Of a stretch of 64,000 nt of DNA, positions 7,580 through 55,675 are shown one piece after another. Below the pieces are notes generated by a model. That model saw only the letters and a list, made by a program, of their open reading frames with translations. It was not told the DNA's origin and did not search any database. Source of the stretch: a virus; UHGV virus genome UHGV-0036582, one strand, 5' to 3'. The position numbers and the translations under genes were made by a program. Numbering within the stretch: position 1 is the first letter of the stretch; every line of letters starts with the position of its first letter.

Positions 7580-7614
7580 TCATGCATTGGCGTAATGTAC
7601 GCGCCAATGCATGA
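7580..7614. terminator. 13-bp inverted repeat between convergent genes, possible bidirectional terminator
   Basis: tcatgcattggcg / cgccaatgcatga arms with a 9-nt loop; no clear T-tract. Confidence 0.4.
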
Positions 7615-8504: not shown

Positions 8505-8562
8505 ATGCCTGCTTCTGTATATATTTAATAAGTTACTTATTATTTATATATACAGAAGCAGG
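8505..8562. repeat. Perfect 17-bp inverted repeat (cctgcttctgtatatat) around an AT-rich loop; a near-identical copy lies at 55689-55750
   Basis: Arms cctgcttctgtatatat / atatatacagaagcagg; the loop contains ataagttacttat, related to the genome-wide palindromic motif. Confidence 0.7.
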
Positions 8563-10805: not shown

Positions 10806-10886
10806 AAAATAAGCGTGGAGAACACCTCCACGCTTGATTCATTTGTGAAACAACTTTTCTTTTGCCAAACCACAAAAGAAAAACAC

Positions 10887-14128: not shown

Positions 14129-14599
14129 GTGAAAGCTGATTTGTCAAAAATCCCTTCTATTTCAGGAAATAACGGTTATTCACTTCGTTGTGAGGAAGTA
14201 AAGATAAACGGTGAGTCGGCATATTGCAGCTATTCCGTTTGCCAGCACACCATTCTTGCCTTCAAAGAAAACCGTCTTCCTCGAACTTCTTTCCAGTCGT
14301 GCGCAACCGCTATTAAAGCAGGCAAATGTAAGGCGTTAAAAATGATGGTTGAAGAGATTCGTAAAGGAGAATCTCTGTATTTCGAAGATATGACCGCACT
14401 CATTAAGGAGGTTGAAGAACGGAATAAACAAGCCAGAACTTTAAAACGAAAACGTGACAGTGTAACTATTAATAGCATGGTTAAGAAGAGCGCCACATCA
14501 CAAACATCGATCTCTGACGTGTATGCGGCATTGCTTGAAGAAACAACAAAAGAAACACATGAGCAAATCGATCAACATATGGAGGCAAAACAACAATGA
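14129..14599 (+). CDS. Hypothetical protein (start uncertain)
   Basis: 156-aa ORF ending where the ligase gene starts. Confidence 0.4.
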   Translation: MKADLSKIPSISGNNGYSLRCEEVKINGESAYCSYSVCQHTILAFKENRLPRTSFQSCATAIKAGKCKALKMMVEEIRKGESLYFEDMTALIKEVEERNKQARTLKRKRDSVTINSMVKKSATSQTSISDVYAALLEETTKETHEQIDQHMEAKQQ

Positions 14600-15918
14600 A
14601 AAAGTTGATCGCACTTAAGCATAAGCTGGACGAAATGAAAGCTATGGGAACCAATGCAAAAAAAGAGGCATTGGCCAACATGGATGACTTCGAGCAAAGC
14701 ATGGTTTCATTGATGCTCAACCCTTTCATCCGTTTTGGGGTAAAGAAATACAAAGTGGCAGAGCCGCTTAGTGAGTCCGTCCCAAGTGACGAAAAAGCCA
14801 TTGATGTACTGAATAAGCTGGCCTCTCGCGAGCTGACGGGGAACGCAGCAATAGCTGCTGTTGAGTCTATCGTGGCGTCAATGTGCGCCGATGGGCAGGA
14901 CGTGTTCCGTCGTTTCCTCTTAAAAGACCCGAAAGCGGGTGTTGGGATTAGCCTATGCAACAAGGTTTTTGAAAATCCCATTCCGAAATTCGAGGTGCAG
15001 CTGGCGTCACCGTATAAAGAAAAAGGCGACAAATACCCCTTCAAGCCAAACCCTAAAGCAAAATGGCCGATGATTGGCAGCCTTAAGCTCGATGGTTTGC
15101 GAGTAATTTGCGAGGTTATTGTTGACGAAGAAGAGGTTAACTTCCTTTCTCGTACTGGTAATCCAATCACGTCTCTCGATCACCTAAAGCCAGCCATGCT
15201 CGAATTAGGCAAACTTTCAGGCCACAAACACATCTTCTTCGATGGTGAAGGCACAGCCGGTTCATTTAACCAGTCCGTATCTGCATTGCGCAAAAAGAAC
15301 GTGCAGGCAATTGGCGCTATTTATCATGTTTTCGACTTCTTCCTACCGGAATGGCGAGCACAGGCTAAATCCAAAGAGTATGCAAAGACAGGTATGAAGC
15401 TGAAAGAGCGCCTGGCTATGCTCGTGGCGTTGTTCAAAAACGATCGCAGTGAAGGCTACGCACAAGACATTCACCTGCATCCGTTCTACATCATCCATAG
15501 CCACGAAGACTTCATCGAACGCTTCATGAAACGCCTGGACGATAACGAAGAAGGGGAGATGGGCAAAGATCCGAACTCTGTTTACGAGTTTAAACGTACC
15601 CGCAGCTGGTGGAAGTTAAAAGACGAAGATTCAGAAGATGGTGAAATTATCGATTTTGAGCCGGGCGACCCGGACTCTGGTTTTGCCAACACGCTTGGGA
15701 AAATTGTTATTCGTCTTGAAAACGGCGTCATCGTTCGTGCGAGCGGCATTAAGCATAAATATCTGGACGAGATCTGGAACAACAAAGAGAAGTACCGTGG
15801 TCGTATTGTCGAGGTTCATTGTCACGAGAAAACACCTGATGGCAGCTTACGCCACCCACGACTGAAATGGCCGCGTTGCTTACGCGATACCGAAGATCGA
15901 ATCGGAGATAAAGAATGA
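14596..15918 (+). CDS. ATP-dependent DNA ligase
   Basis: Adenylation motif I KLDGLR (SLKLDGLRVICEV); 440 aa; motif-like segments FDGEG and EGEMGKDPNSVYEFKRT. Confidence 0.75.
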   Translation: MKKLIALKHKLDEMKAMGTNAKKEALANMDDFEQSMVSLMLNPFIRFGVKKYKVAEPLSESVPSDEKAIDVLNKLASRELTGNAAIAAVESIVASMCADGQDVFRRFLLKDPKAGVGISLCNKVFENPIPKFEVQLASPYKEKGDKYPFKPNPKAKWPMIGSLKLDGLRVICEVIVDEEEVNFLSRTGNPITSLDHLKPAMLELGKLSGHKHIFFDGEGTAGSFNQSVSALRKKNVQAIGAIYHVFDFFLPEWRAQAKSKEYAKTGMKLKERLAMLVALFKNDRSEGYAQDIHLHPFYIIHSHEDFIERFMKRLDDNEEGEMGKDPNSVYEFKRTRSWWKLKDEDSEDGEIIDFEPGDPDSGFANTLGKIVIRLENGVIVRASGIKHKYLDEIWNNKEKYRGRIVEVHCHEKTPDGSLRHPRLKWPRCLRDTEDRIGDKE

Positions 15919-17342: not shown

Positions 17343-17417
17343 GATGGTGTAGCTCAGCGGTAGAGCAGTTGGCTGTTAACCAACTGGTCGGTGGTTCGAA
17401 TCCACCCACCATCGCCA
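17343..17417 (+). tRNA. tRNA-Asn (anticodon GTT)
   Basis: Hand-folded cloverleaf: acceptor gatggtg/caccatc, D-arm gctcagcggtagagc, anticodon stem gttgg/ccaac with loop ctGTTaa, T-arm ggtggttcgaatccacc, encoded CCA. Confidence 0.8.
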
Positions 17418-17422
17418 ATTTA

Positions 17423-17509
17423 GGGGAGTTAGTCCGTAGGGGCAGCGGGGTAGACTGTAAATCTACTGTCATTGCGACTCGGGTGGTTCGACTCCATCAC
17501 TCCCCACCA
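17423..17509 (+). tRNA. tRNA-Tyr (anticodon GTA), long variable arm
   Basis: Acceptor ggggagt/actcccc, anticodon stem gtaga/tctac with loop ctGTAaa, long variable arm, T-loop ttcgact, encoded CCA. Confidence 0.7.
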
Positions 17510-17513
17510 AATT

Positions 17514-17589
17514 GCCGGTTTAGCTCAGTTGGTAGAGCGCCTGCCTTGTAAGCAGGATGTCAGCGGTTCGAGTCCGCTAACCGGCACCA
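17514..17589 (+). tRNA. tRNA-Thr (anticodon TGT)
   Basis: Acceptor gccggtt/aaccggc, D-arm gctcagttggtagagc, anticodon stem cctgc/gcagg with loop ctTGTaa, T-arm agcggttcgagtccgct, CCA. Confidence 0.8.
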
Positions 17590-19985: not shown

Positions 19986-21089
19986 ATGAAAAATAGCTTT
20001 GACAGAGCACGCGCTGCGGAGAACACCTCAAAAGAGGCGATAGAGTATCTCGAAAGAGCATCTCAAATGCAGGCCGTTATGATCTCCCAGGTCAGCAATG
20101 ACATGAGATTCTCGGACGCATTCATGTTATTCACTCGCTTATCTCTGCTGATAACCAGACGTCGGCCAGAGATCGCTGTTCATTGTATTTTGATACATGT
20201 TTTGCCGCACCTTGCCGATGTAAAAGTAAGTGACATTAATAGGTTCATGGTGAACCAACTGGTCAACCCACTAATACTGGATGGCAAAATTGTTATGGGC
20301 CGCCGCGTTTTCTCTCTGATGAAGCAGTTCCTTAGCTGGTGCGCCTTCCAGGGGATGATAGACGTGTCACCGTTAAACGATATGTCACTTAACAATGTTG
20401 CCGGTGGCGCAAAGCCCACACCTCGCGAGCGGAAGCTGACCGACGCAGAGGTATGGGTGTTCTGGAATATATGGGACTACTTCAATGTGTGCGCTGGTAC
20501 AAAATGGGCGGCCAGGCTATGTCTTGTATCCGCAAGACGACCTGACGAAGTACTGCGGGCTAAAAAAAGTGAGTTCAACCTCCAGCGTGGGGTTTGGAAT
20601 CAAGGCAAGAGAAACAAATCAGCCCGTGAGCATTCTCTGCCTTTAAGCACATTAATGCGCACATGCATTGAAGAGTTATTCGAATATGGTAAAGGCAGCC
20701 AGTGGCTTGTGCCTTCGAATAAAAAAATCGGGAATGATCTTCCGATGTCTAAAGTGGCAATAGCCCAGGCATTACGCCGTATCCTGGAACGACCAGAACT
20801 GATGGAGCTTGAGCCATTTACACCCCGAGATTTGCGTCGTACTGCGCGTAGTTACTTCCCAGCATTAGGCATAAGCCAGGAGGTATCACGCAAAATCATG
20901 AACCACAGTCTTGAGGGGATAGATCGGGTCTACGACCGGCACGATTATATGGACGAGATGCGAGACGCCTTAGAAAGTTTCTCGACGTACATCGCATCAA
21001 TCGTAGAGCAACCGGATTTAGACGAAATTGACCACAAATTCAAGGGAGATCGTCTATCAACAGAGCTTATTCGTGTAAATTTTTCATAG
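19986..21089 (+). CDS. Tyrosine recombinase (integrase or resolvase family)
   Basis: Segments consistent with the catalytic R..K..H.R..H..Y set: VSARRPDEV, PRDLRRTARS, MNHS, RVYDRHDY. Confidence 0.75.
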   Translation: MKNSFDRARAAENTSKEAIEYLERASQMQAVMISQVSNDMRFSDAFMLFTRLSLLITRRRPEIAVHCILIHVLPHLADVKVSDINRFMVNQLVNPLILDGKIVMGRRVFSLMKQFLSWCAFQGMIDVSPLNDMSLNNVAGGAKPTPRERKLTDAEVWVFWNIWDYFNVCAGTKWAARLCLVSARRPDEVLRAKKSEFNLQRGVWNQGKRNKSAREHSLPLSTLMRTCIEELFEYGKGSQWLVPSNKKIGNDLPMSKVAIAQALRRILERPELMELEPFTPRDLRRTARSYFPALGISQEVSRKIMNHSLEGIDRVYDRHDYMDEMRDALESFSTYIASIVEQPDLDEIDHKFKGDRLSTELIRVNFS

Positions 21090-22032: not shown

Positions 22033-24132
22033 ATGTCTAAAAAACGTTCCATCAAAGAGGTTCAGGACTTCCGTGACAGTGTAAAACGAGTAGTCGCTCT
22101 CCTTTCAGGTAAAAACATCCCTGTTGCAGAACGAGGGGACGACGCTTATGTACGCTATAACGATGATGGAGAGCCAATTCTCGTAAACATCCCATCAATC
22201 CCGGATAACGCAACACCAGCATTGATGAATGCTGTGCGCGGATTTCTCGATCATGAGGTTGCTCACATTTTGTTTACCGATATTCATGTGTCCAACAAAA
22301 TGAGAGAAAAAGGACGCGTTCCTTCCTGGTCGCTATGGAATGCCTTAGAAGACGTGTTTATCGAGCGAAAAATGGGGCAGGTCTTTAACGGAACAAGACG
22401 TAATCTGATGGCAACTCAGCGCCTTATAATCGAAAAAGTCTTTAAACCAAAGGCTTCAGAGGCTATTACTTATTGTGGCAAAGATCAGCGCGCGCTTTTT
22501 CTAAACTTCTTTCTCTGTCCGGTTGTAAGAGCCTGGGATGGCCAAGCACCGTTCGTAGATTTCATGGATGAATACTGGCCTGTCATTGAGAAACCAATTT
22601 CATTATTAAAAGAACATGGTATCGATGTGGCCGTGCGTAACATGTCTTGCACCGGGGATTGTTTAAAGGTGGCTGCGACCATCGCTAAGATCCTCAAAGA
22701 CACAGAAAGTGAAAGCAAAGGTAAGGAGTCAGCTCCGGGAAAAACTTCCGATCCTTCAGACGCTGATCACGCGGATTCCTCTGGAGAAGGCGATGAAGAT
22801 CACAAGACACCCGAATCGTTAGATAATCACATATCTATTAAAGAAAATTCAAAAGGTAAGCACAAATACGATAATAACAACAGTGATAATTCAGATAACT
22901 CTGAATCATCAGAAACAATATTCGATGATACAGAAAATGATAAAGAGGTATCAGATTCTGGTGCTTCTGATAACGCGGCGTCAGAAGCATTGACCACTGA
23001 CCACGAAAAAAGAAAATCGACAGAAGACGGCTCTTCAGACATTCCAACTCCGTCAAAAATGAGTCTGGAAGAGGCTTTAGAGGAGTTGGATAGCATGGAA
23101 GATGAAGTCGGAGGCATGACAGAAGATGCGCTATCCGAAACGATTAAAAGCGAGTTAACAGAAAGCTCGAAAAGCGAATACAGGCCATACAATCGCTCAT
23201 ACGACTTCATCGGCTCGATTGATCAGGCAGAAGCCCATATCAAACGGCTTATTAAAACATTCTCCGATATTGATTTAGGTGGATATCCAATCAGCCGTTA
23301 TCGCATCGTTCCTGAAGGCAACCAACTCTTCGACAAATATATTGAAAAGCACCTTTCGTCAGGTGTTTCGTCGACGCTGGCAAAAGACCTGGAACGTGCA
23401 ATAGCAAGCAGAAACAGAGTTCAGTTTATACCTGGCCAGCGTCGGGGGCGCATTCATGGTTCAAGTATCTACAGATTAACAATGAATGATGATCGCGTGT
23501 TTCGTAAAAAAGAAGAATCTAAAGCCGTTAACGCCTGTGTTCAACAAGTGATTGATTTATCAGGTTCAATGAGTGGTATAACGATACAATTGGCTCTTGC
23601 AAGTGCATATACCATCGCCGATGCCCTTGATCGAATAAATGTTCCCAACATTATCACCGGCTTCACTACATTTGGTAGTCATATGGCGGCAGGAGAACTT
23701 AAGGCTGTCAAGTATGAGTTCTCTCGCTTTGAATCTTTAATGCTACCTATCATCAAAAATTGGAATGAAAAGGTAAATTCTCGCGAAGTTCGCTCACGTA
23801 TGGGGTGCGTAGGCTACACATTCCCACTTCTTAATAACGTGGATGGTGAAAGCATAGCCAGCCTTGCATCGTTATTTTCCGGTCGCATGGAGGACAGGAA
23901 GATCATGCTTGTTCTGAGTGATGGCGCGCCGTGGGCTGTTGGGAGAGGTTTTGACGCTCATTTGCGTTCGGTTGCGAAGCAAATTGAAACGCAGACTGAT
24001 ATTGATTTGATGGCAATTGGCATCATGACTGACGCACCGGAGAGATTTTACTCAAATCATGCCCTGGTAACGAGCGTTGATAGTCTTGGTTCATCTGTAG
24101 TTACTGAACTATCTCGTATCATTTTAAAGTGA
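22033..24132 (+). CDS. vWA-domain protein (CobT-like) with acidic low-complexity linker
   Basis: 699 aa; MIDAS-like motif DLSGSMSG; central Asp/Glu/Ser-rich tract; followed by an AAA+ ATPase gene, the usual CobS/CobT-like pairing seen in large phages. Confidence 0.65.
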   Translation: MSKKRSIKEVQDFRDSVKRVVALLSGKNIPVAERGDDAYVRYNDDGEPILVNIPSIPDNATPALMNAVRGFLDHEVAHILFTDIHVSNKMREKGRVPSWSLWNALEDVFIERKMGQVFNGTRRNLMATQRLIIEKVFKPKASEAITYCGKDQRALFLNFFLCPVVRAWDGQAPFVDFMDEYWPVIEKPISLLKEHGIDVAVRNMSCTGDCLKVAATIAKILKDTESESKGKESAPGKTSDPSDADHADSSGEGDEDHKTPESLDNHISIKENSKGKHKYDNNNSDNSDNSESSETIFDDTENDKEVSDSGASDNAASEALTTDHEKRKSTEDGSSDIPTPSKMSLEEALEELDSMEDEVGGMTEDALSETIKSELTESSKSEYRPYNRSYDFIGSIDQAEAHIKRLIKTFSDIDLGGYPISRYRIVPEGNQLFDKYIEKHLSSGVSSTLAKDLERAIASRNRVQFIPGQRRGRIHGSSIYRLTMNDDRVFRKKEESKAVNACVQQVIDLSGSMSGITIQLALASAYTIADALDRINVPNIITGFTTFGSHMAAGELKAVKYEFSRFESLMLPIIKNWNEKVNSREVRSRMGCVGYTFPLLNNVDGESIASLASLFSGRMEDRKIMLVLSDGAPWAVGRGFDAHLRSVAKQIETQTDIDLMAIGIMTDAPERFYSNHALVTSVDSLGSSVVTELSRIILK

Positions 24133-24227
24133 ACAAAACAGCCTTAATGATAAGTAACCACTTACGATAGATAATGATATATTTATATAAGAAGTTGAAC
24201 GCTCATTAGAGAACAAAGGAAAAACGC

Positions 24228-25463
24228 ATGACGACTACTGCACTGCAAAATGAAAAAAATCCTTCTGATTACCTTGTTTGCAAGTGGTGCGGCAAATCAT
24301 TTCACTATTTTAAGTCCCATGTAGCCAATGGTAATTGCGAGGGCATTCCTGAGTCAGTAAAAGATGCCGATCCTGACACCGTACTGAAAATGTACACAAC
24401 GCAGTTTCCAGATGAACCAACGCTATCGAAAAAGGCACTTGATGCAATTCAAGCTAAACGTGCCGAGCAAAAAAGCGAAATGGCCAAATCTTCTGGCTTG
24501 ACCAGTAGCCCTGGCTACACAGGCACAGTTGAGTACAAGACAGATCTGGTCGCAGCTCACGAACTGCTAAACGTAACGGTGGAAGAACTCGGAACAAAAC
24601 GTGGGACGCCGCTCATGGTTAGCGTCAACGTCAATACGCCGTATCCAGAGTTCGTTCCCGAAGTGAAGAAAGGCTACGTATATGGCGACTTCGAACTGAT
24701 CAAAGATATTTTCATGATGCTTGAACTTGGCATACCTGGCTATTTGTGGGGTCATGCAGGAACAGGCAAATCGTCATTGCCTACACAGCTATGTGCTTTG
24801 CTCAATCGTCCGTTGATCCGTGCCCAACATACAGCATCAATGGAAGAGGCACATGTTACGGGGCAAATTCTGGCGCGTGATGGCTCTACGTATTTCGAAC
24901 CTGGCTTGCTTGCGCTCGCAATGAAGCATGGCTGGGTTTACCTCGCAGATGAATACGACTTTGCGTTTCCACAAATTCTTGGCGTGTATCAGCCAGTGCT
25001 GGAAGGTGAAGCGTTGGTCATCAAAGAGGCAACTCCAGAATGGCGTCGCATTACTCCGCATGAACGGTTTGCTTTCATTGGCACTGGCAACACGAACGGA
25101 TCTGGTGATGAAACCGGCTTGTACCAGGGTACAAACATCCAGAACGCCGCGAACTTTTCGCGTTTTGGCATCGTTTCGAATGTGAAATACATGAGCAAAG
25201 ACGCAGAGATCAACATGTTGACAAATGCAGGCATCGTGGATGAATACGCTGAAAAGATGGTTAAGTTTGCCGGTATCGTTCGCGATGGATACGAAGAACA
25301 CCTTATTAGTCAGCCAATTGGCCCTCGTGAACTTTTGTTGTCGGCCAAGATTGGAATGATGCGAGGCGACTTTGTGACAGGTATTGAGCGTTCTTTCATT
25401 AACAAACTCCCTTCAGCTTCTGCACAAGCGGCTCGTGAAGTTGTTCAAAAAATATTTGGTTAA
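24228..25463 (+). CDS. MoxR/CobS-like AAA+ ATPase with N-terminal zinc-ribbon
   Basis: Walker A GHAGTGKSS, Walker B-like WVYLADEYD; N-terminal CKWCG...GNCEG cysteine cluster. Confidence 0.7.
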   Translation: MTTTALQNEKNPSDYLVCKWCGKSFHYFKSHVANGNCEGIPESVKDADPDTVLKMYTTQFPDEPTLSKKALDAIQAKRAEQKSEMAKSSGLTSSPGYTGTVEYKTDLVAAHELLNVTVEELGTKRGTPLMVSVNVNTPYPEFVPEVKKGYVYGDFELIKDIFMMLELGIPGYLWGHAGTGKSSLPTQLCALLNRPLIRAQHTASMEEAHVTGQILARDGSTYFEPGLLALAMKHGWVYLADEYDFAFPQILGVYQPVLEGEALVIKEATPEWRRITPHERFAFIGTGNTNGSGDETGLYQGTNIQNAANFSRFGIVSNVKYMSKDAEINMLTNAGIVDEYAEKMVKFAGIVRDGYEEHLISQPIGPRELLLSAKIGMMRGDFVTGIERSFINKLPSASAQAAREVVQKIFG

Positions 25464-25465
25464 TC

Positions 25466-25669
25466 GTGCGTAAAGGATGTTTCGGCTCTCTTATCGCTGC
25501 TTCTGAAACTGGTAAGGCTTGTCTGGTGTGTCCAGACAAGCCCGATTGTCACCAATCAGCAAAAGAAGTTGCGATTTCGATGCATGGGAAGTTCGTAGGC
25601 TTCCCCAATGACAAAATCAAAAAAACCAGAAAGGTAAAAACACATGAAGGCACTGATGGTTCGAACTGA
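25466..25669 (+). CDS. Hypothetical small Cys-rich protein
   Basis: 67-aa ORF with C..C...C.C..C pattern; overlaps the dnaE start. Confidence 0.3.
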   Translation: MRKGCFGSLIAASETGKACLVCPDKPDCHQSAKEVAISMHGKFVGFPNDKIKKTRKVKTHEGTDGSN

Positions 25670-28600
25670 CTTCTCACTTGGGGAGTCGGCTCTAAAAGCA
25701 GAAAACGCGGTGAAGATTGCCAGAGAAGCTGGCTACACCGCTGTAATTTCAGCAGATAGCATGAATATTGCGAGCGTTATTCCACTACAACGTGCCGCTG
25801 GTGACGACATGGCGGTTATTTGTGGTGTGAAACTAAACATTGTTGATGATCCCACATACGAGCACCGGGCTAAACTTGCTAAAGAATCTATGAGATGTAT
25901 GGAATCATTAGAGCGGGGACGTAACTACTCGTTTACCGCTCTAATTAAAAATGAGCAAGGATATCGCGACATCTGCGAACTAATGACGGTGGCCAACACA
26001 CGAGAACAGTTCTACTTTGTACCGCGTCTCTCGCTCGAACAGTTGGTTTCTACATATGCCAAAGGCAACATCATCCTGCTCACTTCCGACATCGGTAGCG
26101 TGTTCCAACGCAACGATTTTGCAAAAATCATAAGCTCACTGATTACAGCGGGCGGGAAAGACAACTTCTATAGCGTGGTTTATCCGCACCCTACCCCATT
26201 CTACGACCAGATTAACGTCCGAGCGATGAAAGTAGCCAGCGCACTGAAAATAGAGCCAGTAGCGTTCTATCCCGCTTATTACGAATCGATCGACGATGCA
26301 GACATTAAAGACATTGCGCACATGGTTACGAACAACATAAAAATCGACCAGCCGCATCGTCTGCGTATCCCCCACCAGCGAGATAACGCCATCAATGGTC
26401 GTCGCCATCTCCTTGAGGCGCTTAAAGCCTTCTCCGTTCGCATGGATGTGCCGGTAACAGCTGCAATGGCCTCAACAACGCAGGACTCCATTATCGATGC
26501 CTGCACATGGCGCTGGCATGAATTGCCACCAGCACTGCCCAAGATGGCAGACGACGAACCTGCAACGCTGATGAAACTGGCTGTTGCAGGGCTGCGTAAA
26601 CGTCTTACCACAAAAGAGTTTGGATACACACCACCTGCTTCTGAGAACAGGGTTTATGTTGAGCGGCTAAAGTACGAAATGGACACGCTGACTCGCCTGG
26701 GATTCTGTGGTTACTTCCTGATGGTACGCGATCTGATGAATCACAGCCGTGAAACTGGCATTCCTGTCGGGCCTGGTCGTGGTTCCTCTGCCGGTTCTCT
26801 GGTGGCGTGGTGCATAGGCATAACCAACGTCGACCCAATCCGTCACGGTCTTCTGTTTGAGCGTTTCATCAACCCTGAGCGTCTCGACTTGCCGGATGCG
26901 GACTTGGACTTCAGCCAGGCACGTCGCCATGAGGTGATCGAGTATCTGAATGAACGCTACGGCGAAGATTACGTTGCAGGCATTCCGAACTTCACCTACC
27001 TGGGCGCAGCCTCTGCACTACGTGACACCGCTCGTATTTATGGTGTGGAGTCCGCAGATATGGCGGTATCAAAAGAACTGAAGAACGTCGAGGATGATAG
27101 CCTTCCATTGGAAGAGCTGCGCGAACAACTGGCAAGTCTCGACAAATACGCAACAAAATATCCTGATGCATTCAATGCAGCCTGCAAGTTACAAAGCCTT
27201 ATGCGTGGCTTTGGTAGACATGCGGCAGGGATGATCGTAGCAGGTGTTCCTCTGACAGAACGTACACCGGTTGAACGCCGTGGTGACGCGCGTTGTATCG
27301 CATTTGACAAGCGTTACTGCGAGGCTATGGGCCTAATTAAGCTGGACGTACTTGGTCTGGCAACTCTCGATTTGCTCGATAGTGCAAAACGCTACATAAA
27401 AGAGAACACAGGTGAAGATATCAATCTTGATGCCATTTCTCTTGAAGATCGCAAGGTGCTGGATGGTTTTGCTGCTGGGTACACTCAAGGTGTTTTCCAG
27501 CTTGAATCAGGCCCAATGCGCAAGCTGCTTAAAGATTTAGGTGGTGGAATTGAGCCAATGAGCTTTAAAACGGTTGTTGCTACGACTGCGCTCTTCCGGC
27601 CGGGTCCAATTCAGTCAGGCATGTTGGATGACTATGTTTCTGTAGCCAAAGGCTTTATGACGCCGGAATCATTACACCCCGTTCTTGATGAACTTACCGC
27701 AGAAACAAATGGCGTGATTCTCTATCAGGAACAGACGATGAACGCGACTCGATTGCTTGCTGGCTTCACAATGGCTGAAGCTGACGGCGTTCGTAAAGCG
27801 ATCGGCAAAAAAGACATGGAAAAAATGAAGAGCATGGGCGAGAAGTTCATCGTTCAGGCTCAAGCTGGCTGGATAGACGTTGAGCTGGAAGATGGCACTA
27901 CACAGCGCATTCACCGTGCGGAACATTTTAAATGCGAAGACGGAACTCTGAAAACTGTCGAAGAGGCACTTGAGTACGGCGCAAAACTACCTATAAACGC
28001 AGTACGCGTTACAGCGTCACATCCAGGGCTATCAGAGATGAAAGCGAAGGAGATCTGGACCGCATTCGAAAAGAATGGTGCCTACCAGTTCAACAAATCA
28101 CACTCTGTTGCTTACTCCTTAATCAGTTATCAATCTATGTGGTTGAAAACTCATTATCCCGCGGAGTTCTTCGCTGCTGCTCTCACTATTCTTGGCGAAG
28201 ATAAACACCAGGGGCTGGTTAAAGATGCGCTGACCTATGGTATTCGCGTATTGCCACCAGACGTTAACGTGTCATCTAACCGAATCGAGATCCGCACGCT
28301 TGAAGATGGCAGCCAGGTGCTGTATGCGCCCTTCTCTGCTGTGAAAGGGTGTTCTGAGAATGGCTGCCAAGCCATCATGAGAGCGCGAGAAAAAGTTGGC
28401 GGCAAATTCGAGTCACTGGCGCAATTCGAAGAAGCTGTCGAGAAACGTGCCTGTAATAGTCGAGTGCGCGAATCACTGCAAAAAGTAGGTGCGTTTGCAT
28501 CCATCGAGCCAGGTAGTCTGCCAGCAACTGATCCAGAGCGTCTCCGCGACCAGGCTGAATTGATGGGAAACCTTGTCATAGACGCAGTTAAAGCCTCACG

Positions 28601-29162
28601 TCCGTTTGAGATGAACCCCAAACGTTCGGCTGAGATTAACGTGCTCATGACACGGATGGCGGCTGAAATGGGATTAGGTGATGAACTAATCCGCCCTAGC
28701 ATTGGCATTAAGCCGAAAATCATGATCATTCTGGACAATGCGAACGGCAATGATGCTCGAACCGGTTACTTTATGGAGAACGGATACGACGACTTTAAGG
28801 CCAAGCTATTGACGGCTGGAGATTTACGCATGGGCGATCTCTATGTCACAGGCGTTTGCAAGAAGGTTAAAGACAAAGAAAAAGACTACACCAAAGACGA
28901 GATCGGCCAGTTCACCGACTTTATACGTGAAGAGATCAATCTGGTGCGTCCGACCTATGTGCTGACGTGTGGCAGCCGGGCAACGGCATTGTTTAACAAC
29001 AAAAACAAGCCATCCGATTTGGTCGGCAGGAAGGAGTACCTTCCAGACCTTGACGTTACTGTCTTTTACGGGTTTAACCCCAACATTCTTTACTTCAGAC
29101 CTGAAGAGGGAGAACGACTAGAAGCGATATTAGCCGACGTAGCAGAAACCATTAAGACGTGA
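25644..29162 (+). CDS. dnaE: DNA polymerase III alpha subunit (DnaE-type C-family polymerase)
   Basis: 1172 aa; palm region [38 protein letters not shown]...LPDADLDF closely matches bacterial DnaE; PHP-like N-terminus. Confidence 0.9.
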   Translation: [1172 protein letters not shown]

Positions 29163-30865: not shown

Positions 30866-30881
30866 TCCCATTACGTGACCA

Positions 30882-30910
30882 GTAAGGCGTCTACGGACGC
30901 CTTACTTTTT
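30882..30910 (+). terminator. Rho-independent terminator
   Basis: gtaaggcgtc-tacg-gacgccttac then ttttt. Confidence 0.75.
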
Positions 30911-30925
30911 GGAAGGAATGTACCG

Positions 30926-31870
30926 GTGAATTATCTCTTCGTAGATGGCAATAGCCTGGGTTATTACCACCAACAATCTGACAAATTGCACAACGGCGAA
31001 ATGGAAGTACAGGCTGCTTTCGGCTTTGTTAAGAACGTCCGTCGTTATGCCTCCATCCTCCATGCCCGACCTATGATTCTTTGGGATGGATTTAGTGACA
31101 AGCGTCGCGACTTTTACCCGGACTACAAAGCAAATCGCGACGACGATCCTGATATGAAAAAGATGAAGGAAGGCTTTGCTATCCAGAAGCCATACATCCT
31201 CAAAATGATGACCGCGCTTGGTGTTAACCAAATCATTGCAAAAGATGCAGAAGCGGATGATCTGGCCGGGCTGCTGGTATCCCGCATGGCACCGCAGCCA
31301 ACCGTTGAACACATCTATCTGTTAACAGGCGATAGCGACTGGCTTCAGTTAGTTCGCGAAAACGTAAGCTGGGTAAGCCTGCGTGAAGACGCCAAAAACA
31401 AGCAGGTTAATTTTGAGCAATTTGCGGAGCTGACAGGATTCGCCACGCCTCGCGCATTTTTGGAAGCAAAAGCATTACAAGGCGATAACTCGGACAACAT
31501 TAGCGGTGTTGGTGGCATTGGTGCTGGCGGTGCGAAAGAGCTGCTGCATGAATGGGGAAGTGTCGCAACGATGGTACGCGGCATCAACGACGGCTCAATC
31601 GTGGTTAATAAAGGGCGTCATAAGACCGCCTTCAACAAACTAGCGAAGAATGCCTTCAACGAGAAAACAGGCTGTCGAATGCTCGAAGCGTTCAAGAGAA
31701 ACATCACCCTAATGAACCTGATTGAGACGAAGTTTCCGCCTACCGAAATCGAAACAATCAAAGGCAATCGTGACGTGAAAGCATTCGAGCAACTGTGCTA
31801 CGAGCTGAATTTCCGTTCGTTCCTTGAAGACCTTGAAGTGTTTGTTCTTCCATTCGAAAGGTATTGCTAA
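30926..31870 (+). CDS. 5'-3' exonuclease / flap endonuclease (RNase H-like, FEN family)
   Basis: Start set at the GTG at 30926 (GGAAGG RBS at 30911-30916) because the ATG at 30875 lies inside the upstream terminator hairpin. Motifs LFVDGNSLGYY and helix-hairpin-helix GDNSDNISGVGGIGAGGAKELL. Confidence 0.8.
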   Translation: MNYLFVDGNSLGYYHQQSDKLHNGEMEVQAAFGFVKNVRRYASILHARPMILWDGFSDKRRDFYPDYKANRDDDPDMKKMKEGFAIQKPYILKMMTALGVNQIIAKDAEADDLAGLLVSRMAPQPTVEHIYLLTGDSDWLQLVRENVSWVSLREDAKNKQVNFEQFAELTGFATPRAFLEAKALQGDNSDNISGVGGIGAGGAKELLHEWGSVATMVRGINDGSIVVNKGRHKTAFNKLAKNAFNEKTGCRMLEAFKRNITLMNLIETKFPPTEIETIKGNRDVKAFEQLCYELNFRSFLEDLEVFVLPFERYC

Positions 31871-32138: not shown

Positions 32139-33212
32139 ATGGCAAAAGGAAAATCCGCACTGGCACTTGCTCTGAAAAAGAAAATCGGTAGCAACGACGA
32201 AATTCAGAAAGTAACTCATTGGATTGATACAGGCTTTCCACCGTTAAACAAAGCTATTTCTGGTCGTTACGATGGCGGCTTCCCATGTGGTCGTATCGTC
32301 GAAGTATTCGGTCCTCCAAGTGCAGGGAAAACGTTCCTTGCAACAGCAGCGATGATCTCCGCTCAAAAACAAGATGGTCTGGCGGTATTCCTCGATCATG
32401 AAAACAGTTTTGACGTTGGCCTGGCTGTAGCCAATGGCCTGAACGCAGATGAGGATGACGGTCAGTGGGTATACAAGCAGCCTGATACCTTCGAAGACTC
32501 TGTAGAGTTGATCGGCACAATTCTTAAATTGGTACGTGATGAAGAGCTTATTCCTGAATCAGCACCTATCTGTATCGTGGCTGACTCACTTGCGTCTATG
32601 GTTCCGAACTCCAAAGCCGAGAAGTTCGAAAAGATGGCTGAAGGCACTGCCAAAGACAAAGATCAGCTAAACATGAACGACAATACGGCACTGGCTCGTG
32701 CGACAAGTGCGAACTTCCCTACTCTGGCTTTGTGGGCACGCAAATACAACGCCTGCATCATCTTCTTGAATCAGGTTCGCACAAAAATCGGTGTAATGTT
32801 TGGCGACCCTACTACGTCGCCAGGTGGAGATTCACCGAAGTTCTACGCTTCTGTACGTATCCGTCTTGGTGCATCGGTGATGAAGGATGGTAAAGAGAAG
32901 ATCGGCCAGGACGTAGGCGCAGAATGCATCAAAAACAAAGTTGCACCACCGTATGGTAAATGCACCTGGAAATTCTACTTCGATCCTACTCGTGGCCTCG
33001 ACGTTATCGAATCGCTCGTCGAGTACATGCTGGAAGAAGGATACCTGCCAAAGAACGCCAGCGGGCGAGTTGAAATTGGTGACAAGAAATACACCAAATC
33101 GCAGATCGTCGAGATGTATCGGGAGAAGCCACTGGCTGAAATCATTGCGGCTTTGCAGGCAATCGACGACCGAAGAGCAAAAGACAACCCCACCGAGTCA
33201 GTAGAAGAGTAA
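32139..33212 (+). CDS. RecA/UvsX-like recombinase
   Basis: RecA-type P-loop GRIVEVFGPPSAGKTFLA; 357 aa. Confidence 0.8.
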   Translation: MAKGKSALALALKKKIGSNDEIQKVTHWIDTGFPPLNKAISGRYDGGFPCGRIVEVFGPPSAGKTFLATAAMISAQKQDGLAVFLDHENSFDVGLAVANGLNADEDDGQWVYKQPDTFEDSVELIGTILKLVRDEELIPESAPICIVADSLASMVPNSKAEKFEKMAEGTAKDKDQLNMNDNTALARATSANFPTLALWARKYNACIIFLNQVRTKIGVMFGDPTTSPGGDSPKFYASVRIRLGASVMKDGKEKIGQDVGAECIKNKVAPPYGKCTWKFYFDPTRGLDVIESLVEYMLEEGYLPKNASGRVEIGDKKYTKSQIVEMYREKPLAEIIAALQAIDDRRAKDNPTESVEE

Positions 33213-37493: not shown

Positions 37494-37825
37494 AGGCCAT
37501 CCCATTCGCGCTGTTGTTCCTTTCTTCGATTGTTGTGGCCGACACCACTGTTTATCAGTGTGAAATGTCTGTAGCCGACGTTAAGAATGGCGCTCTTACC
37601 GACGTCATAAAAGCACCATATGGAGCGATGGTCGTAGACAGCGGCGACCAGTTCTATGTTGTGCGTGACGATCGAGTGTTGTCATCCCCATATCTCACAA
37701 ATCGTAATGGCAAATTAACCGGCGTCGGAGAAGACCACTTCGTATACAACAAATACAAGGGCTTCTATGGCGTTCACGCTTCTCAGCAAAGCTACCTTTT
37801 CGATGACTGCAAGGAGGTTGGGTAA
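37490..37825 (+). CDS. Secreted protein of unknown function
   Basis: Signal peptide MKAIPFALLFLSSIVVA; 111 aa; two Cys in the mature part. Confidence 0.45.
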   Translation: MKAIPFALLFLSSIVVADTTVYQCEMSVADVKNGALTDVIKAPYGAMVVDSGDQFYVVRDDRVLSSPYLTNRNGKLTGVGEDHFVYNKYKGFYGVHASQQSYLFDDCKEVG

Positions 37826-38037
37826 TGGCATTAACACTGGCAGGTCTGGAAATCGAGAAAACAAGCGGCTACTGGCGTGCTAAGGGTTTCAAGCAGCCTG
37901 GCATTCTTGAGCGTCTGGAACGTGAAGATGGGTATATCGTCCACCAGCGGCGTGAATGGCGTATGTACGATCCAGAAACAGGAAAACTGACTACAAAAGC
38001 CGGAACACTTTGGGGTCTGTTGAAGAAAATACACTAA
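37825..38037 (+). CDS. Hypothetical small protein
   Basis: 70-aa ORF overlapping the previous stop. Confidence 0.4.
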   Translation: MALTLAGLEIEKTSGYWRAKGFKQPGILERLEREDGYIVHQRREWRMYDPETGKLTTKAGTLWGLLKKIH

Positions 38038-38083
38038 ATGCAAACTGACTGCGGCTCGTTCCGCAGTCATATTTCATAGTCGT

Positions 38084-38618
38084 CACCGCTGACAGCATAC
38101 ACAATCAACTACCGCTGATAGCATATCGAGAGTCTATCTCACCGCTCACAGCATACTTTACTCGATTTTTTACCGCTGACAGCATACTTAAGAAATTGCA
38201 TGAATAATGTGTCCCGGTATGGGTATAACCAGAACAAAATTACCGCTGGCAGCATACGAATGTCTGACATATACCATTAATTACCGCTGATAGCATATCC
38301 AAACAAAAATTCCTCAATAAAACACCGCTGACAGCATACGTTCTATCAGGGAGTAGCAGGCAATAAATGCCTTTCACTACAAGCAATCAGCGCAATAGCA
38401 ATAGAATGTTAGTGAGCGCAAACCTATATGGAATGCACTCTTCGAGGTTAGTAACCACTGGGGAGGTATGACAGAGCATTGAGTGGTGATAGATGATTTA
38501 CCGCTCACAGCATACGTTCATCTCACTATACCGCTGGTAGCATATCTTTAACCGTTCACAGCATACTTTTCAGAAAAATAGCCGCTGATAGCATACATTT
38601 CACCGCTGACAGCATATC
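38084..38618 (+). repeat. Iteron array: about 12 direct copies of a 16-bp repeat (consensus ACCGCTGACAGCATAC) downstream of rep
   Basis: Copies at about 38085, 38111, 38141, 38172, 38242, 38283, 38324, 38490, 38530, 38551, 38581 and 38602, all in one orientation with irregular spacing, plus an approximately 150-bp repeat-free spacer at 38340-38489. Confidence 0.85.
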
Positions 38619-39711
38619 AAAGCAGTTTGAGACTATTGGAAAGGATCTCAATCATCTTGATATTTTCAGGCGTCAAATTCTGCGAAAGTTCGGTTATCTT
38701 GTTGATAATGTTCTGTTTGGCATCAATTTCCCCAGCTTTCTCATCTGGTTTTTTGGGTTCGATGTCTTCAGGTTTTGGCGGTGCGACTTTGAGTTTTGGA
38801 TTGCGGCTGTGAATCTGGATATAGATCGACCGCCCACGCTTAATCTCGCTGTATTCGAGATAGCCCAAATCTTGGAGAGCTTTTAAGCCGTTACGTATAG
38901 TCTGATTCTGCGAGCTGACATTCCTGCTACTCAAATTGAGTCGCGCACGCAATCGAGCAAGCGATACCGGCGCAGGCTTGGTTGGAAGACTTTCGATGAA
39001 GGTGTACAGAGCCTGTGCTGTTTCTTTGCGTGGTAGCTTATTGATAACCTTTAACTGCAAAAGAACCTTATGGTCAAAGCGATATAGTTCGGCCAGCTTC
39101 GGTTCTGCATAGAACACCACCGTATCTTTCTGCTCGTTGTAGTCCACGCTATTGATGAGGTGCACCATCAGAAGCGAGATCTTGTTAGAGCCGTCGACGT
39201 TCTTTTCTTCATACGTTCTCTGGAAAGACAGAGTTGTACGCATGATCTTCAAAAGACTGTTTGTAAGCCGGTCGCGGAGTGTTTTGCGGATCTGTGACGA
39301 TGGATAGCCACAAAACTTAGCAAATTTCGTGATGCTTAACTCGACACGACCGTTAGGTTCGCCGTATTCTGCCAGCGAACGCACAACGCCCACCCACGTT
39401 TTGAAATCATGATCCATGTCGAGACGAGGACCGGTTATCTTGATATCGGAATAGCCTTCAGAACGGGCTACTTCGAGCTGGACAAGCTCCTTTGAAGCAT
39501 CGATCTCATTTGGCTTGTTACGTTTACTGTATTTTGTTCCCTTAAGCGTGGGGACGAACAACCCCAGTCGCATCAACGCAATTGGTTGGACTGTATTGTT
39601 GCTATTAGGGACAAGTTCCCCTGTGTACAATTCAAGGGAACCTTCTTCAAAGTTGTCGATGTTATCTTCTACTTCTTTGTTATTTTTACCTTTTTTATTT
39701 TTTGTGGACAT
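38617..39711 (-). CDS. repA: Plasmid-type replication initiator (Rep) flanked by iterons
   Basis: Start set at the ATG at 39711 (MSTKNKKGKNNK...) because longer starts would run through the upstream iterons; 364 aa; iteron clusters on both sides. Function inferred from this architecture, not from recognised motifs. Confidence 0.6.
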   Translation of the reverse strand: MSTKNKKGKNNKEVEDNIDNFEEGSLELYTGELVPNSNNTVQPIALMRLGLFVPTLKGTKYSKRNKPNEIDASKELVQLEVARSEGYSDIKITGPRLDMDHDFKTWVGVVRSLAEYGEPNGRVELSITKFAKFCGYPSSQIRKTLRDRLTNSLLKIMRTTLSFQRTYEEKNVDGSNKISLLMVHLINSVDYNEQKDTVVFYAEPKLAELYRFDHKVLLQLKVINKLPRKETAQALYTFIESLPTKPAPVSLARLRARLNLSSRNVSSQNQTIRNGLKALQDLGYLEYSEIKRGRSIYIQIHSRNPKLKVAPPKPEDIEPKKPDEKAGEIDAKQNIINKITELSQNLTPENIKMIEILSNSLKLL

Positions 39712-39731
39712 GTGGACACCTTTGTCATTCA

Positions 39732-39833
39732 ACCGCTGACAGCATACTTGATTTGCCGCTGACAGAATACCAAAAACAGTTGGCAGCATACGGTGAACCG
39801 CTGACAGACTATCAATTACCGCTGACAGCATAC
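39732..39833 (+). repeat. Second iteron cluster (4-5 copies) immediately upstream of rep, probable promoter/operator and origin
   Basis: accgctgacagcatac at 39732 and 39818; variants gccgctgacagaatac at 39755, accgctgacagactat at 39797; a partial copy tggcagcatac at 39781. Confidence 0.8.
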
Positions 39834-40032
39834 ATGAACATGACTTCAGACCAGTCGTGGCGCGGCTTACAGCGATCGGGGATCTTATTTGATCTATATA
39901 AGGATCTATCTATGGATCTCTTTATTAGGATCTATCCTGTGGATATGTGAATAATTAAAACAGGCATTTACTACCTTCGGCGCACCTGGTGGGTTATCGT
40001 TGCCTCGGCTAACAATCACAGAAAAATGACAT

Positions 40033-53372: not shown

Positions 53373-53930
53373 ATGACAACGATTGTTGCAGGCATCGATA
53401 TCGAGTCTACGGGACTGGATTTCCTTGCTGGTCATAAAATTATTGAAATCGCAATTACCCGCTATGAACTGGAGACACAGAGACATATTGATAGTCTGGA
53501 GATGCGTTTTAACCCTCGCAGAAACATAGATCCGAAAGCTCAAGCCGTTCATGGCATTTCATTGGAACAGCTCGCAGCTGAACCTTTGTTGTCAAATCAT
53601 GCCAGCGAAATTGGCGCTTATATGGGGGCATGTAGTGTGTGGGTTGCTCATAACGGCGAAGCATTTGATATACCATTTATTCGACACGAGTTTTCAGGGT
53701 ATGGAGTAAGACTGCCAGAAGTTCCTGTTATAGATACTATGTTATCGGGATTGTGGGCCACAGAAGACGGTAAACGTCCCCGCCTTGAAGAGTTGGCCTT
53801 CTCTCTTGGCTATATATACGATCATGCCAAAGCACATAGTGCCTTATATGACACAAACTTAATGATGCAATGCTTCTTTAAGGCACGTAATAAGTACGGA
53901 TTTTTTAAATTACCCTCTGAAATTGTGTAA
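53373..53930 (+). CDS. DnaQ-like 3'-5' exonuclease (DEDDh family), candidate proofreading subunit
   Basis: Exo I GIDIESTGL, Exo II WVAHNGEAFDIPF, Exo III HSALYD. Confidence 0.75.
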   Translation: MTTIVAGIDIESTGLDFLAGHKIIEIAITRYELETQRHIDSLEMRFNPRRNIDPKAQAVHGISLEQLAAEPLLSNHASEIGAYMGACSVWVAHNGEAFDIPFIRHEFSGYGVRLPEVPVIDTMLSGLWATEDGKRPRLEELAFSLGYIYDHAKAHSALYDTNLMMQCFFKARNKYGFFKLPSEIV

Positions 53931-55081: not shown

Positions 55082-55675
55082 ATGATTGCAGCCGAAAAAA
55101 TCAAACAGCGAAAGCGCGACAACTCTCTTCGTGACCTCTGGAGAACACCTGACTGGCTGTTTTCTGCCATTCAACGTTATCTTGGAGTGACATTTGATGT
55201 TGACGTTGCCTGCAACAAGGACAATGCAAAGCTGCCTAATTTCATAGGCGTTGAGCGTGATGCTTTGAAATCTGAATGGGGACAGCCAGGTACAATTGCC
55301 TTCCTAAATCCACCCTACTCCAAAATCTCCCCCTGGATTGATGCGGCTATACGTGAGCAGGCTCGCGGAGTTACAACAGTGATGCTAATTCCTCAATCCC
55401 TAGATACAAAGTGGTATGAGCGTGCAACAGAGTGTGCGAATGAGACGATTATTCTGTCTGGTGGCCGCGTAGCGTTTGTCGAGCCTGACGTAAATCTGGG
55501 TCAGGTAGAAGTAAACATCAACCCAGGTGGCAGTATGCTCGTTGTTTTTCGAGGATTCTGTCAGGACGCTGGGCACTCTATAAGCAAGATCCCTTTGGAC
55601 GTCATGAAAAGTCTGGGAGGGTATGATCCTGCGAATGTGATCAGGAAAAAAAGACCATCAAAGAAGGCTGCTTAG
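55082..55675 (+). CDS. Phage Dam-type DNA N6-adenine methyltransferase
   Basis: Catalytic motif NPPY in IAFLNPPYSKISPWIDAAIRE; 197 aa. Confidence 0.7.
   Translation: MIAAEKIKQRKRDNSLRDLWRTPDWLFSAIQRYLGVTFDVDVACNKDNAKLPNFIGVERDALKSEWGQPGTIAFLNPPYSKISPWIDAAIREQARGVTTVMLIPQSLDTKWYERATECANETIILSGGRVAFVEPDVNLGQVEVNINPGGSMLVVFRGFCQDAGHSISKIPLDVMKSLGGYDPANVIRKKRPSKKAA

Follow-up and report, generated by a model that had tools for sequence, protein, structure and literature searches.

The window, by which we mean the whole 64-kb stretch of viral DNA analysed, contains a minus-strand gene for a replication initiator (rep, 38617-39711; 364 amino acids) flanked by arrays of short direct repeats, or iterons. 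We searched both strands of the window for ACCGCTGACAGCATAC with at most three mismatches, revealing 18 sites, of which 17 lie at 38085-39833, all on the plus strand; 100 dinucleotide-preserving shuffles gave a mean of 0.41 sites and a maximum of 2. The eighteenth site (17552, minus strand, three mismatches) falls within a tRNA gene and is a chance match. The same repeat family was recovered by an independent repeat search of the window, and its unit, read in the sense of rep (minus strand), is GTATGCTGTCAGCGGT. An earlier reading made from the sequence alone had described about 17 direct copies of a 16-bp repeat, in two clusters on either side of a 364-aa minus-strand ORF. The copies, the ORF and the flanking arrangement all proved real, but the repeats fall into three blocks rather than two clusters, with seven, five and five copies in a single orientation, 12 of them downstream of rep and five upstream.

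The block most distant from rep (block A, 38085-38339, plus strand) comprises seven direct copies of the putative control iterons, starting at 38085, 38111, 38141, 38172, 38242, 38283 and 38324 (spacings of 26, 30, 31, 70, 41 and 41 bp). Proximal to the gene, block B (38500-38617, plus strand) holds five further direct copies, which start at 38500, 38530, 38551, 38581 and 38602 (spacings of 30, 21, 30 and 21 bp) and were found by the same ACCGCTGACAGCATAC search. Blocks A and B are 160 bp apart; a conserved element within this gap was considered and rejected, as the window and the Klebsiella plasmid pJN2-26 match there only at the iterons. On the other side of rep, the five direct copies of block C (39732-39833, plus strand; start-to-start spacings of 23, 21, 21 and 21 bp) form the candidate origin iterons, which are incC-like, and end 20 bp upstream of the rep ATG. 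Iteron spacings are mostly close to whole helical turns, as in phage P1.

The rep gene starts at an ATG at 39711 that is preceded by a Shine-Dalgarno sequence (AAGGTG). The longest ORF in this frame encodes 404 amino acids and is the one annotated in RefSeq (as 'RepB family plasmid replication initiator protein'), its extra length reading through the upstream iterons. Rep is 46% identical to P1 RepA over P1 residues 20-284 of 286 (BLASTP, E = 3e-86; 43.5% and E = 2e-64 by tblastn) and 47.9% identical to SSU5 RepA, and its 477 homologues are named RepA, RepFIB or RepB-family initiators, with many of those at 50-55% identity bearing the name RepFIB RepA, that of the RepFIB replicons of F-family plasmids. 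Pfam placed a Rep3_N (WH1) domain at residues 118-239 (E = 3.9e-9; a score of 37.5 bits, where the cut-off is 22.4), while a scan against NCBIfam returned no matching model. We also predicted the structure of Rep, for which the sequence-only reading had proposed a check for winged-helix domains. The AlphaFold model was of moderate confidence (mean pLDDT, 68.9; 75-90 in the core), and its fold indeed matched known initiators in the PDB by Foldseek, with best matches to domains 2-3 of RctB from Vibrio chromosome II (E = 3.5e-8) and RepE of F (3.9e-5), followed by a WH1 domain (6h24; 8.5e-4), pi of R6K (5.7e-3) and TrfA (3.4e-2). RepE, pi and RctB share the WH1-WH2 fold with the model and no detectable sequence similarity with Rep, and searches of PDB sequences with Rep alone or with a 16-sequence profile gave chance matches only, revealing no sequence relative of solved structure. 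Judging from the model, kinship to the solved initiators is visible at the level of the fold only. Homology and predicted fold together indicate that Rep is a WH1-WH2 winged-helix iteron initiator of the RepA type and, by fold, one of the Rep_3 initiators, among them RepE, pi, RctB and the RepA of pPS10.

Beyond the upstream iterons lies a conserved origin core (39834-39954), which falls outside the end of the region delimited previously (39833). It begins with a GC-rich spacer (39834-39873) containing, in the sense of rep, GCCGCGCCACGnCTGG, the columns of which are invariant in an alignment with P1 oriR and pJN2-26. The spacer leads to a cluster of six GATC (Dam) sites (39874-39932; at 39874, 39881, 39891, 39903, 39915 and 39929), which are set in (A/T)AGATCC-type repeats that the repeat search recovered as well. 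At six sites in 70 bp, this cluster is the densest in the window, the densest stretch elsewhere having three, and in the alignment it falls opposite the five Dam sites annotated for P1 oriR. Strand opening and methylation/SeqA control presumably take place here. Two tandem DnaA boxes follow on the minus strand (39938-39954; TGTGGATAT and TGTGAATAA on the plus strand), each matching TTATCCACA at eight of nine positions and aligning with the tandem DnaA site marked in the P1 annotation. The core as a whole aligns base by base with P1 oriR and with pJN2-26, and recurs in 1,626 plasmid records, some of them from Yersinia pestis. At the opposite end, a terminator-like hairpin readable on both strands (38046-38069) marks the left edge of the replicon cassette, near the point at which similarity to SSU5 and pLF82 breaks off (about 38037).

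Scans of the rep strand for a sigma-70 consensus promoter in the origin iterons or their vicinity (standard and relaxed, at least 8/12 matches) found none, and the same scans of the rep strand of pJN2-26 revealed nothing at 8/12 or above. The P1 repA promoter, PrepA (TTGCTA, 18 nt, TAGGAT), likewise fits the consensus poorly. One would expect the rep promoter among the origin iterons; as the scans found no consensus promoter, the case for autoregulation by Rep, which would operate there, is one of analogy. An Rfam scan of the whole window identified three tRNAs (17343-17586) and nothing else; with no RNA family in the replicon, there is no sign of antisense-RNA copy control.

The layout is that of the P1 plasmid replicon (AF234172), which has the same order of tandem DnaA boxes, Dam sites, spacer, five iterons, repA and downstream iterons. 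The five copies of P1 incC are spaced at 22, 21, 21 and 21 bp, compared with 23, 21, 21 and 21 here, and the last copy of block B touches the rep stop codon just as incA copy 9 touches that of P1 repA. By this analogy, the origin iterons would be only the five upstream copies, and the 12 downstream of rep would most likely serve, like incA, in negative copy control. The departures from P1 are minor. The iteron here (GTATGCTGTCAGCGGT) differs from that of P1 (GATGTGTGCTGGAGGGAAA), which leads us to expect that the two replicons differ in specificity and incompatibility. The 12 control iterons stand in two blocks and are all direct, whereas P1 has nine (six inverted and three direct), and the geometry of iteron pairing may therefore differ. 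There are six GATC sites rather than five, and compared with P1 RepA, Rep is extended by ~30 aa at the N terminus and by a two-helix segment of ~55 aa at the C terminus.

Among relatives, the downstream array varies in copy number (8, 9 or 12), compared with a fixed five upstream. The replicon of pECOH89 and p09EL50, designated 'IncFIB' by typing tools, is the same sequence, with nothing of substance different. The replicon of pJN2-26 encodes a Rep 85% identical to ours and has the same iteron, the same spacing of the five upstream copies and eight downstream copies; the sequence of block A outside the iterons is not conserved in it. In SSU5 and pLF82 (Cyrano), the replicon occupies the same slot, between a cra-like gene and a PHROG 2105 gene, with iterons on both sides of rep and with flanks and a DnaA/GATC module that are 76-77% identical. 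Because Rep is only 48% identical in these elements and their iteron is different (AACCACTGTAGAGAGTA), the cassette at 38038-39873 looks like an exchanged specificity module. In SSU5, additionally, the origin module is duplicated and the iterons downstream of rep point in both directions.

Arrays of this kind could be artifacts of assembly, but that explanation is ruled out because the same 671-bp downstream array, identical in length, recurs in 120 plasmid records that include closed circular plasmids, and because p09EL50 has all 17 iterons at the same spacing as the window. The constancy of array length across these records also led us to reject wide variation of iteron number in the population. 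There is one exception, the phage PhiR41_1, which lacks 87 bp of block A carrying three iteron copies, as much as would be lost if the two exact copies that start at 38085 and 38172 had recombined.

At 99.8% identity, the window is nearly the same in sequence as p09EL50 (NC_018651), a circular plasmid of 109,274 bp that gives a PFGE band of about 110 kb. Matches extend to pECOH89 and to about 120 further plasmid records. pECOH89 (NC_023916) carries the same region, with 99.3% identity over the control array, and its RepA has been reported to be identical to that of p09EL50 (PMC3999498). Near-identical elements are thus circular plasmids of about 109 kb, and the pECOH89/p09EL50 family, relatives of SSU5, is recognised as a group of E. 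coli phage-plasmids. Its sister Cyrano/pLF82 exists as an episome, with about 5.5 copies for each chromosome, from which ciprofloxacin induces virions, and the phage record PhiR41_1, which matches the window, lists tail genes together with ParA, primase, Pol III alpha and RNR. The element is therefore an SSU5-supergroup phage-plasmid of the pECOH89/p09EL50 type. Two proposals of the sequence-only reading agree well with these data: that the element is maintained as an extrachromosomal plasmid prophage, as its circular relatives are, one of them visible by PFGE; and that it has a theta replicon under iteron control that encodes an initiator of its own, which is supported by the homology to P1 RepA, the initiator fold and the oriR/incC-repA-incA layout. 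The replicon is already known in kind, being the ordinary plasmid-maintenance replicon of a known phage-plasmid family; our literature search found no paper on the iteron and origin anatomy of the pECOH89/p09EL50 allele.

Genes for partition lie 31 kb from the replicon, whereas in P1 they are adjacent to it. The proposed ParA-type ATPase (6549-7217, plus strand, 222 aa) was recognised by Pfam (MipZ, AAA_31, CbiA and ParA) and by PHROG 164 (ParA-like partition protein; E = 4e-51). Its partner (7217-7576, plus strand, 119 aa; PHROG 5111, function unknown) is presumably a centromere-binding protein. No Pfam family was detected for the partner, either with the single sequence or with 12 members, nor was a PDB match by Foldseek or profile search, and the AlphaFold monomer was of low confidence (pLDDT, 64). 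In a type Ib partition system, a small ParA works with a centromere-binding protein of ribbon-helix-helix (RHH) fold; the searches did not confirm the RHH fold that the sequence-only reading had proposed for the partner. The helices in the model span residues 48-60 and 70-84 and come after a conserved segment, SRTMS, and the conserved pattern SRTMSLEDEYFELL...FTRSDVIRAAI looks RHH-like. A search around parA found no centromere-like repeats and only two short perfect palindromes (7580-7614 and 8508-8562).

The phage-type replication gene set described earlier is likewise present, with Pfam identifying a DnaB-like helicase, a primase, Pol III alpha, an epsilon-like exonuclease, a ligase and a 5'-3' exonuclease; the element also encodes RecA and a Dam methylase (55082-55675). 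Two coexisting replication modes, as in P1, are plausible. A more intimate arrangement, in which, during lysogeny, Rep would load the helicase, primase and Pol III alpha that the element encodes, and in which the element's Dam would set the methylation of the origin, seems improbable to us, although if true it would make the prophage plasmid partly independent of the host replisome and host Dam. The sole observation in favor of such coupling is that the genes occur together.

We consider it very probable that the locus is a plasmid-maintenance ('R-type') replicon homologous to P1 oriR-repA-incA, and because of this homology its mechanism can be modeled on that of P1. Rep monomers would bind the five phased iterons at 39732-39833 and, together with host DnaA at the tandem boxes (39938-39954), open the GATC-rich region (39874-39932), where the host helicase would be loaded for theta replication. 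The GATC sites would tie initiation to Dam methylation, with sequestration of the origin, probably by SeqA, when it is hemimethylated. Rep on the origin iterons would cover its own promoter and so repress it, while the 12 downstream iterons (38085-38617) would titrate Rep and pair with the origin iterons ('handcuffing'), holding copy number low and setting incompatibility. A replicon of the P1 type would replicate autonomously at low copy number, with incompatibility mediated by its iterons and a dependence on DnaA, Dam and DnaK/DnaJ/GrpE; the PFGE band of p09EL50 and the copy number of Cyrano support this indirectly. ParA and its partner would segregate the plasmid copies, and induction would switch the element to a separate phage program with its own helicase, primase and Pol III alpha.

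Other roles for the repeats fit the data less well. A role of the downstream iterons as positive elements of the origin, such as a second origin or an enhancer, would agree with the direct orientation and helical phasing of all copies, with the origin-like tight 21/30-bp spacing of block B and with the duplicated module of SSU5. Neither block A nor block B, however, contains DnaA boxes or a GATC cluster, the array begins at the rep stop codon, which is the position of P1 incA, and its copies vary in number among relatives whose upstream set is fixed; on balance, a positive role is unlikely. It is scarcely credible that the repeats serve as a centromere for partition, or as attachment sites of the phage, instead of binding the initiator, despite the lack of centromere repeats next to parA and the labeling of two iterons as attL and attR in the pJN2-26 record. 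Those labels resemble the automatic output of a prophage finder, the repeats bracket rep with parA 31 kb away, their layout and phasing are those of the RepA-binding iterons of P1, and the element is a circular plasmid rather than an integrated prophage.

The unusually complete set of replication genes also raises the question of whether the replicon is a relic, with lysogenic maintenance provided by the phage-type DnaB-like helicase, primase and Pol III alpha at another origin. Against this stand the intact and conserved rep and iterons, the array of the same 671-bp length in 120 records, the upstream phasing kept in pJN2-26 at 85% Rep identity, and the intact rep cassette that relatives retain in this slot, including those with an exchanged specificity module, making a relic very unlikely. 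A negative copy-control role for the downstream iterons within a working maintenance replicon remains the reading we prefer.

This replicon leaves knowledge of iteron replicons in general unchanged. Its anatomy does correct existing annotation, including the rep start codon, iterons called att sites and a RepA called 'replication helicase', and should be useful for building mini-replicons and for reading copy-number mutants. The incompatibility type assigned by typing tools is set by the iterons together with the Rep allele. Phage-plasmids of a widespread E. coli and Shigella family, some of which carry CTX-M-15 and other resistance genes, owe their maintenance in the cell to this replicon.

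A pattern search of the whole 64-kb window for ACCGCTGACAGCATAC, allowing no more than three mismatches, returned 18 matches, far above the chance expectation from shuffled sequence (mean, 0.41; maximum, 2), showing that the iteron repeats are real. All but one (17/18) fall within 38085–39833, every one on the plus strand; the remaining site, at 17552 on the minus strand with 3 mismatches, lies inside a tRNA gene and is a chance match. A second, independent repeat search also recovered the family, which has the invariant core CCG.T..(A/G)..AG.ATA(C/T) and A/T-rich flanks. The sequence-only reading had described about 17 direct copies around a minus-strand gene, which holds, but in two clusters, where we find three blocks. 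Block A, distal and downstream of rep, has seven copies (38085–38339; start-to-start spacing 26, 30, 31, 70, 41 and 41); block B has five (38500–38617; 30, 21, 30 and 21), the final copy touching the rep stop codon; and block C has five (39732–39833; 23, 21, 21 and 21), 20 bp upstream of the rep ATG. The majority of spacings approximate whole helical turns (21, 30–31 and 41 bp), as is likewise the case in P1. An assembly artefact is ruled out because the 671-bp control array has equal length in 120 records and because the Escherichia coli phage-plasmid p09EL50 carries 17/17 copies with spacing identical to the window.

The gene between blocks B and C (38617–39711, minus strand) encodes a 364-aa protein whose ATG at 39711 is preceded by the Shine–Dalgarno sequence AAGGTG, a start also used by the record of the phage PhiR41_1 and several homologues. 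The longest open reading frame (38617–39831; 404 aa) is the RefSeq annotation (WP_001348683) and runs on through block C. This version starts inside the outermost origin iteron, and its first 40 residues derive from translation of iterons. The proposed identity of the product as an initiator was borne out by several lines of evidence. Rep contains the WH1 domain of Rep_3 initiators (Pfam Rep3_N, E = 3.9e-9) and is 46% identical to P1 RepA over P1 residues 20–284 of 286 (BLASTP with the query from the annotated P1 record, E = 3e-86). A database search returned 477 homologues at E ≤0.001, named at source as RepA, RepFIB replication protein A or 'RepB family plasmid replication initiator protein'. 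An AlphaFold model built with 16 homologues (mean pLDDT, 68.9; 75–90 over approximately residues 70–305) matched, among solved structures in Foldseek, RctB domains 2–3 (E = 3.5e-8) and RepE of F (3.9e-5), followed by a WH1 domain (8.5e-4), pi of R6K (5.7e-3) and TrfA. The best of these matches are all iteron-binding initiators, so a non-initiator fold was not what we found.

Compared with P1 RepA, Rep has a lysine-rich N-terminal extension of ~30 aa and a C-terminal extension of ~55 aa (residues ~310–364; window 38617–38780) that is absent from the P1 protein. The latter contains two predicted helices (328–342 and 348–363; pLDDT ~82), and its sequence is conserved in close, SSU5-type homologues; a C-terminal tail is found in RepFIB-like proteins too. 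PHROG 775, and then the RefSeq phage records of P1, P7 and SSU5, label P1-type RepA 'replication helicase', a label contradicted by the Pfam WH1 domain and the Foldseek initiator matches; the protein belongs with the winged-helix initiators and is not a helicase.

The iteron origin envisaged around rep is thus supported in substance but not in extent, with further parts lying just beyond the end proposed for it: a GC-rich spacer of ~40 bp (39834–39873), six GATC sites in 59 bp (39874–39932) and two tandem DnaA boxes (39938–39954), each matching the consensus at 8/9 positions. The GATC cluster is the densest in the window, the next densest being three in 70 bp. We compared this layout with the annotated P1 record (GenBank AF234172), in which the parts occur in the same order: tandem DnaA boxes, five Dam sites, a spacer of ~40 bp, five origin iterons spaced 22, 21, 21 and 21 that contain the repA promoter, repA itself and nine incA iterons ending at the repA stop codon, against twelve ending at the rep stop codon here. 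The DnaA/GATC/spacer core could be aligned nucleotide for nucleotide with both P1 oriR and the Klebsiella phage-plasmid pJN2-26, with GCCGCGCCACGnCTGG invariant; between P1 oriR and the window only the iterons differ (GATGTGTGCTGGAGGGAAA in P1, GTATGCTGTCAGCGGT in the window). Because the core aligns at the nucleotide level, the sequences argue that the correspondence with P1 is more than analogy. Across Enterobacterales, 1,626 plasmid records contain the core module, those of Yersinia pestis plasmids among them.

In P1, initiation, Dam-site timing, autorepression and copy control by incA are established. By homology, Rep bound as monomers to the five origin iterons and DnaA on its tandem boxes would open the GATC-rich segment for theta replication, while GATC methylation, and sequestration during hemimethylation, would time re-initiation. 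Rep bound at the origin iterons would also repress its own promoter. The twelve downstream copies, most likely control elements rather than origin, would bind Rep and pair with the origin, lowering copy number and causing incompatibility. The promoter is the weakest link of this mechanism: standard and relaxed scans found no sigma-70-like site on the rep strand of the window or pJN2-26, and the annotated P1 repA promoter is also a poor match to consensus. Autoregulation, as suggested by P1, is unproven.

The view that the element is an extrachromosomal plasmid prophage was upheld by its relatives. The replicon region is 99.8–99.9% identical to many ~109-kb E. coli and Shigella plasmids, and 188 plasmid records matched (90 at ≥99% identity; 181 typed as non-mobilizable). 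Among them is the 109,274-bp circular plasmid p09EL50 from E. coli O104:H4 2009EL-2050, seen as a ~110 kb band on PFGE (PMC3486847). The control array is also found at 99.3% identity in pECOH89, whose RepA has been reported to match that of p09EL50 exactly and to share 48% identity with the pLF82 protein (PMC3999498). The region further matches the deposited phage genomes PhiR41_1 and CMS-2020a, and the literature counts such elements among the SSU5-supergroup phage-plasmids. Cyrano/pLF82, a sister element, exists as an episome at ~5.5 copies per chromosome and yields virions upon ciprofloxacin induction (PMC9928086).

ParA was confirmed at 6549–7217. Its 119-aa partner received no family assignment or structural match in family and structure searches; a conserved SRTMSLEDEYFELL...FTRSDVIRAAI segment looks RHH-like, the RHH fold itself being unproven. 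A repeat search found no centromere-type array near parA. Immediately after the operon come two perfect palindromes (7580–7614, arms 13 nt, gap 9 nt; 8508–8562, arms 17 nt, gap 21 nt), which could be terminators or candidate centromere/operator sites. The phage-type replication set is likewise present, comprising a DnaB-like helicase (9465–10805), primase (10815–12068), ATP-dependent ligase (14596–15918), Pol III alpha (25644–29162), 5'–3' exonuclease (30875–31870), RecA (32139–33212) and epsilon-like exonuclease (53373–53930); RNR, thymidylate synthase, DHFR and RNase H appear as well in the annotation of the matching phage, PhiR41_1. Because P1 has separate plasmid and lytic origins, it is reasonable to infer that two replication modes may coexist here.

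Other genes in the window include three adjacent tRNA genes (17343–17586, +), one holding the lone chance iteron match, and CobT-like (VWA) and CobS-like proteins amid the replication genes (22033–25463, +), a pair that recurs in SSU5-type elements. A tyrosine recombinase (Phage_integrase family; 19986–21089, +) on this plasmid-maintained element may be either an integrase or, like P1 Cre, an enzyme of dimer resolution. Immediately left of the replicon lies a cra-like gene (37825–38037), whose counterparts in the records of SSU5 and pJN2-26 are named 'Cre-associated protein'. A predicted phage-type Dam N6-adenine methyltransferase (55082–55675, +; PF05869, E = 2.5e-38) is encoded on the same element whose plasmid origin has six GATC sites.

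We also compared iteron arrangement among relatives. The window and p09EL50 share five upstream and twelve downstream copies (7 + 5), all direct. Klebsiella pJN2-26 (Rep ~85%) has the same iteron, five upstream copies in the same phasing and eight downstream (4 + 4). Two iterons flanking its rep (MZ779062, 1378–1397 and 2648–2667) are labelled 'phage attachment site attR/attL', most likely an automatic prophage-finder artefact in which direct repeats were taken for att sites. P1 has five upstream copies and nine downstream, six of them inverted. SSU5 (Rep 47.9%) carries the iteron AACCACTGTAGAGAGTA. Its DnaA-box/GATC module and iteron set are tandemly duplicated upstream (780–823 versus 1155–1198, within 780–1400), and its downstream iterons (2500–3105) occur in both orientations. 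Against SSU5, the flanks and DnaA/GATC module align at 76–77%, with similarity breaking off at 39873 and picking up again at 38035, whereas the iteron-plus-rep cassette between them (38038–39873) has diverged in SSU5/pLF82 (Rep 48%, different iteron). For around 50 E. coli plasmids, the left-flank query matched over its first 48 bp alone, a stretch corresponding to the end of the left-flank gene. These comparisons suggest that the specificity module can be swapped within a slot that is itself conserved. Such an exchange would resemble the alternation of IncY and p0111 replicases that has been described in P1-like elements (PMC7969092).

Overall, the original observation is confirmed and its interpretation supported, with corrections. 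The replicon is of a known type and belongs to a widespread phage-plasmid family that is itself known; it has already been annotated and serves in typing, SSU5-type 'IncFIB' rep genes being included in plasmid typing tools according to the literature. Our literature search found no paper setting out the fine anatomy of this rep allele, which is what P1 homology predicts. PhiR41_1 (Rep 99.7%, same iteron, five upstream copies) retains only nine downstream copies, having lost three from block A through an 87-bp deletion (window 38085–38171), the size that would result from recombination between the two exact copies at 38085 and 38172. This variant is rare, since the array is complete in 120 plasmid records, and it would offer a natural test of iteron dosage against copy number.
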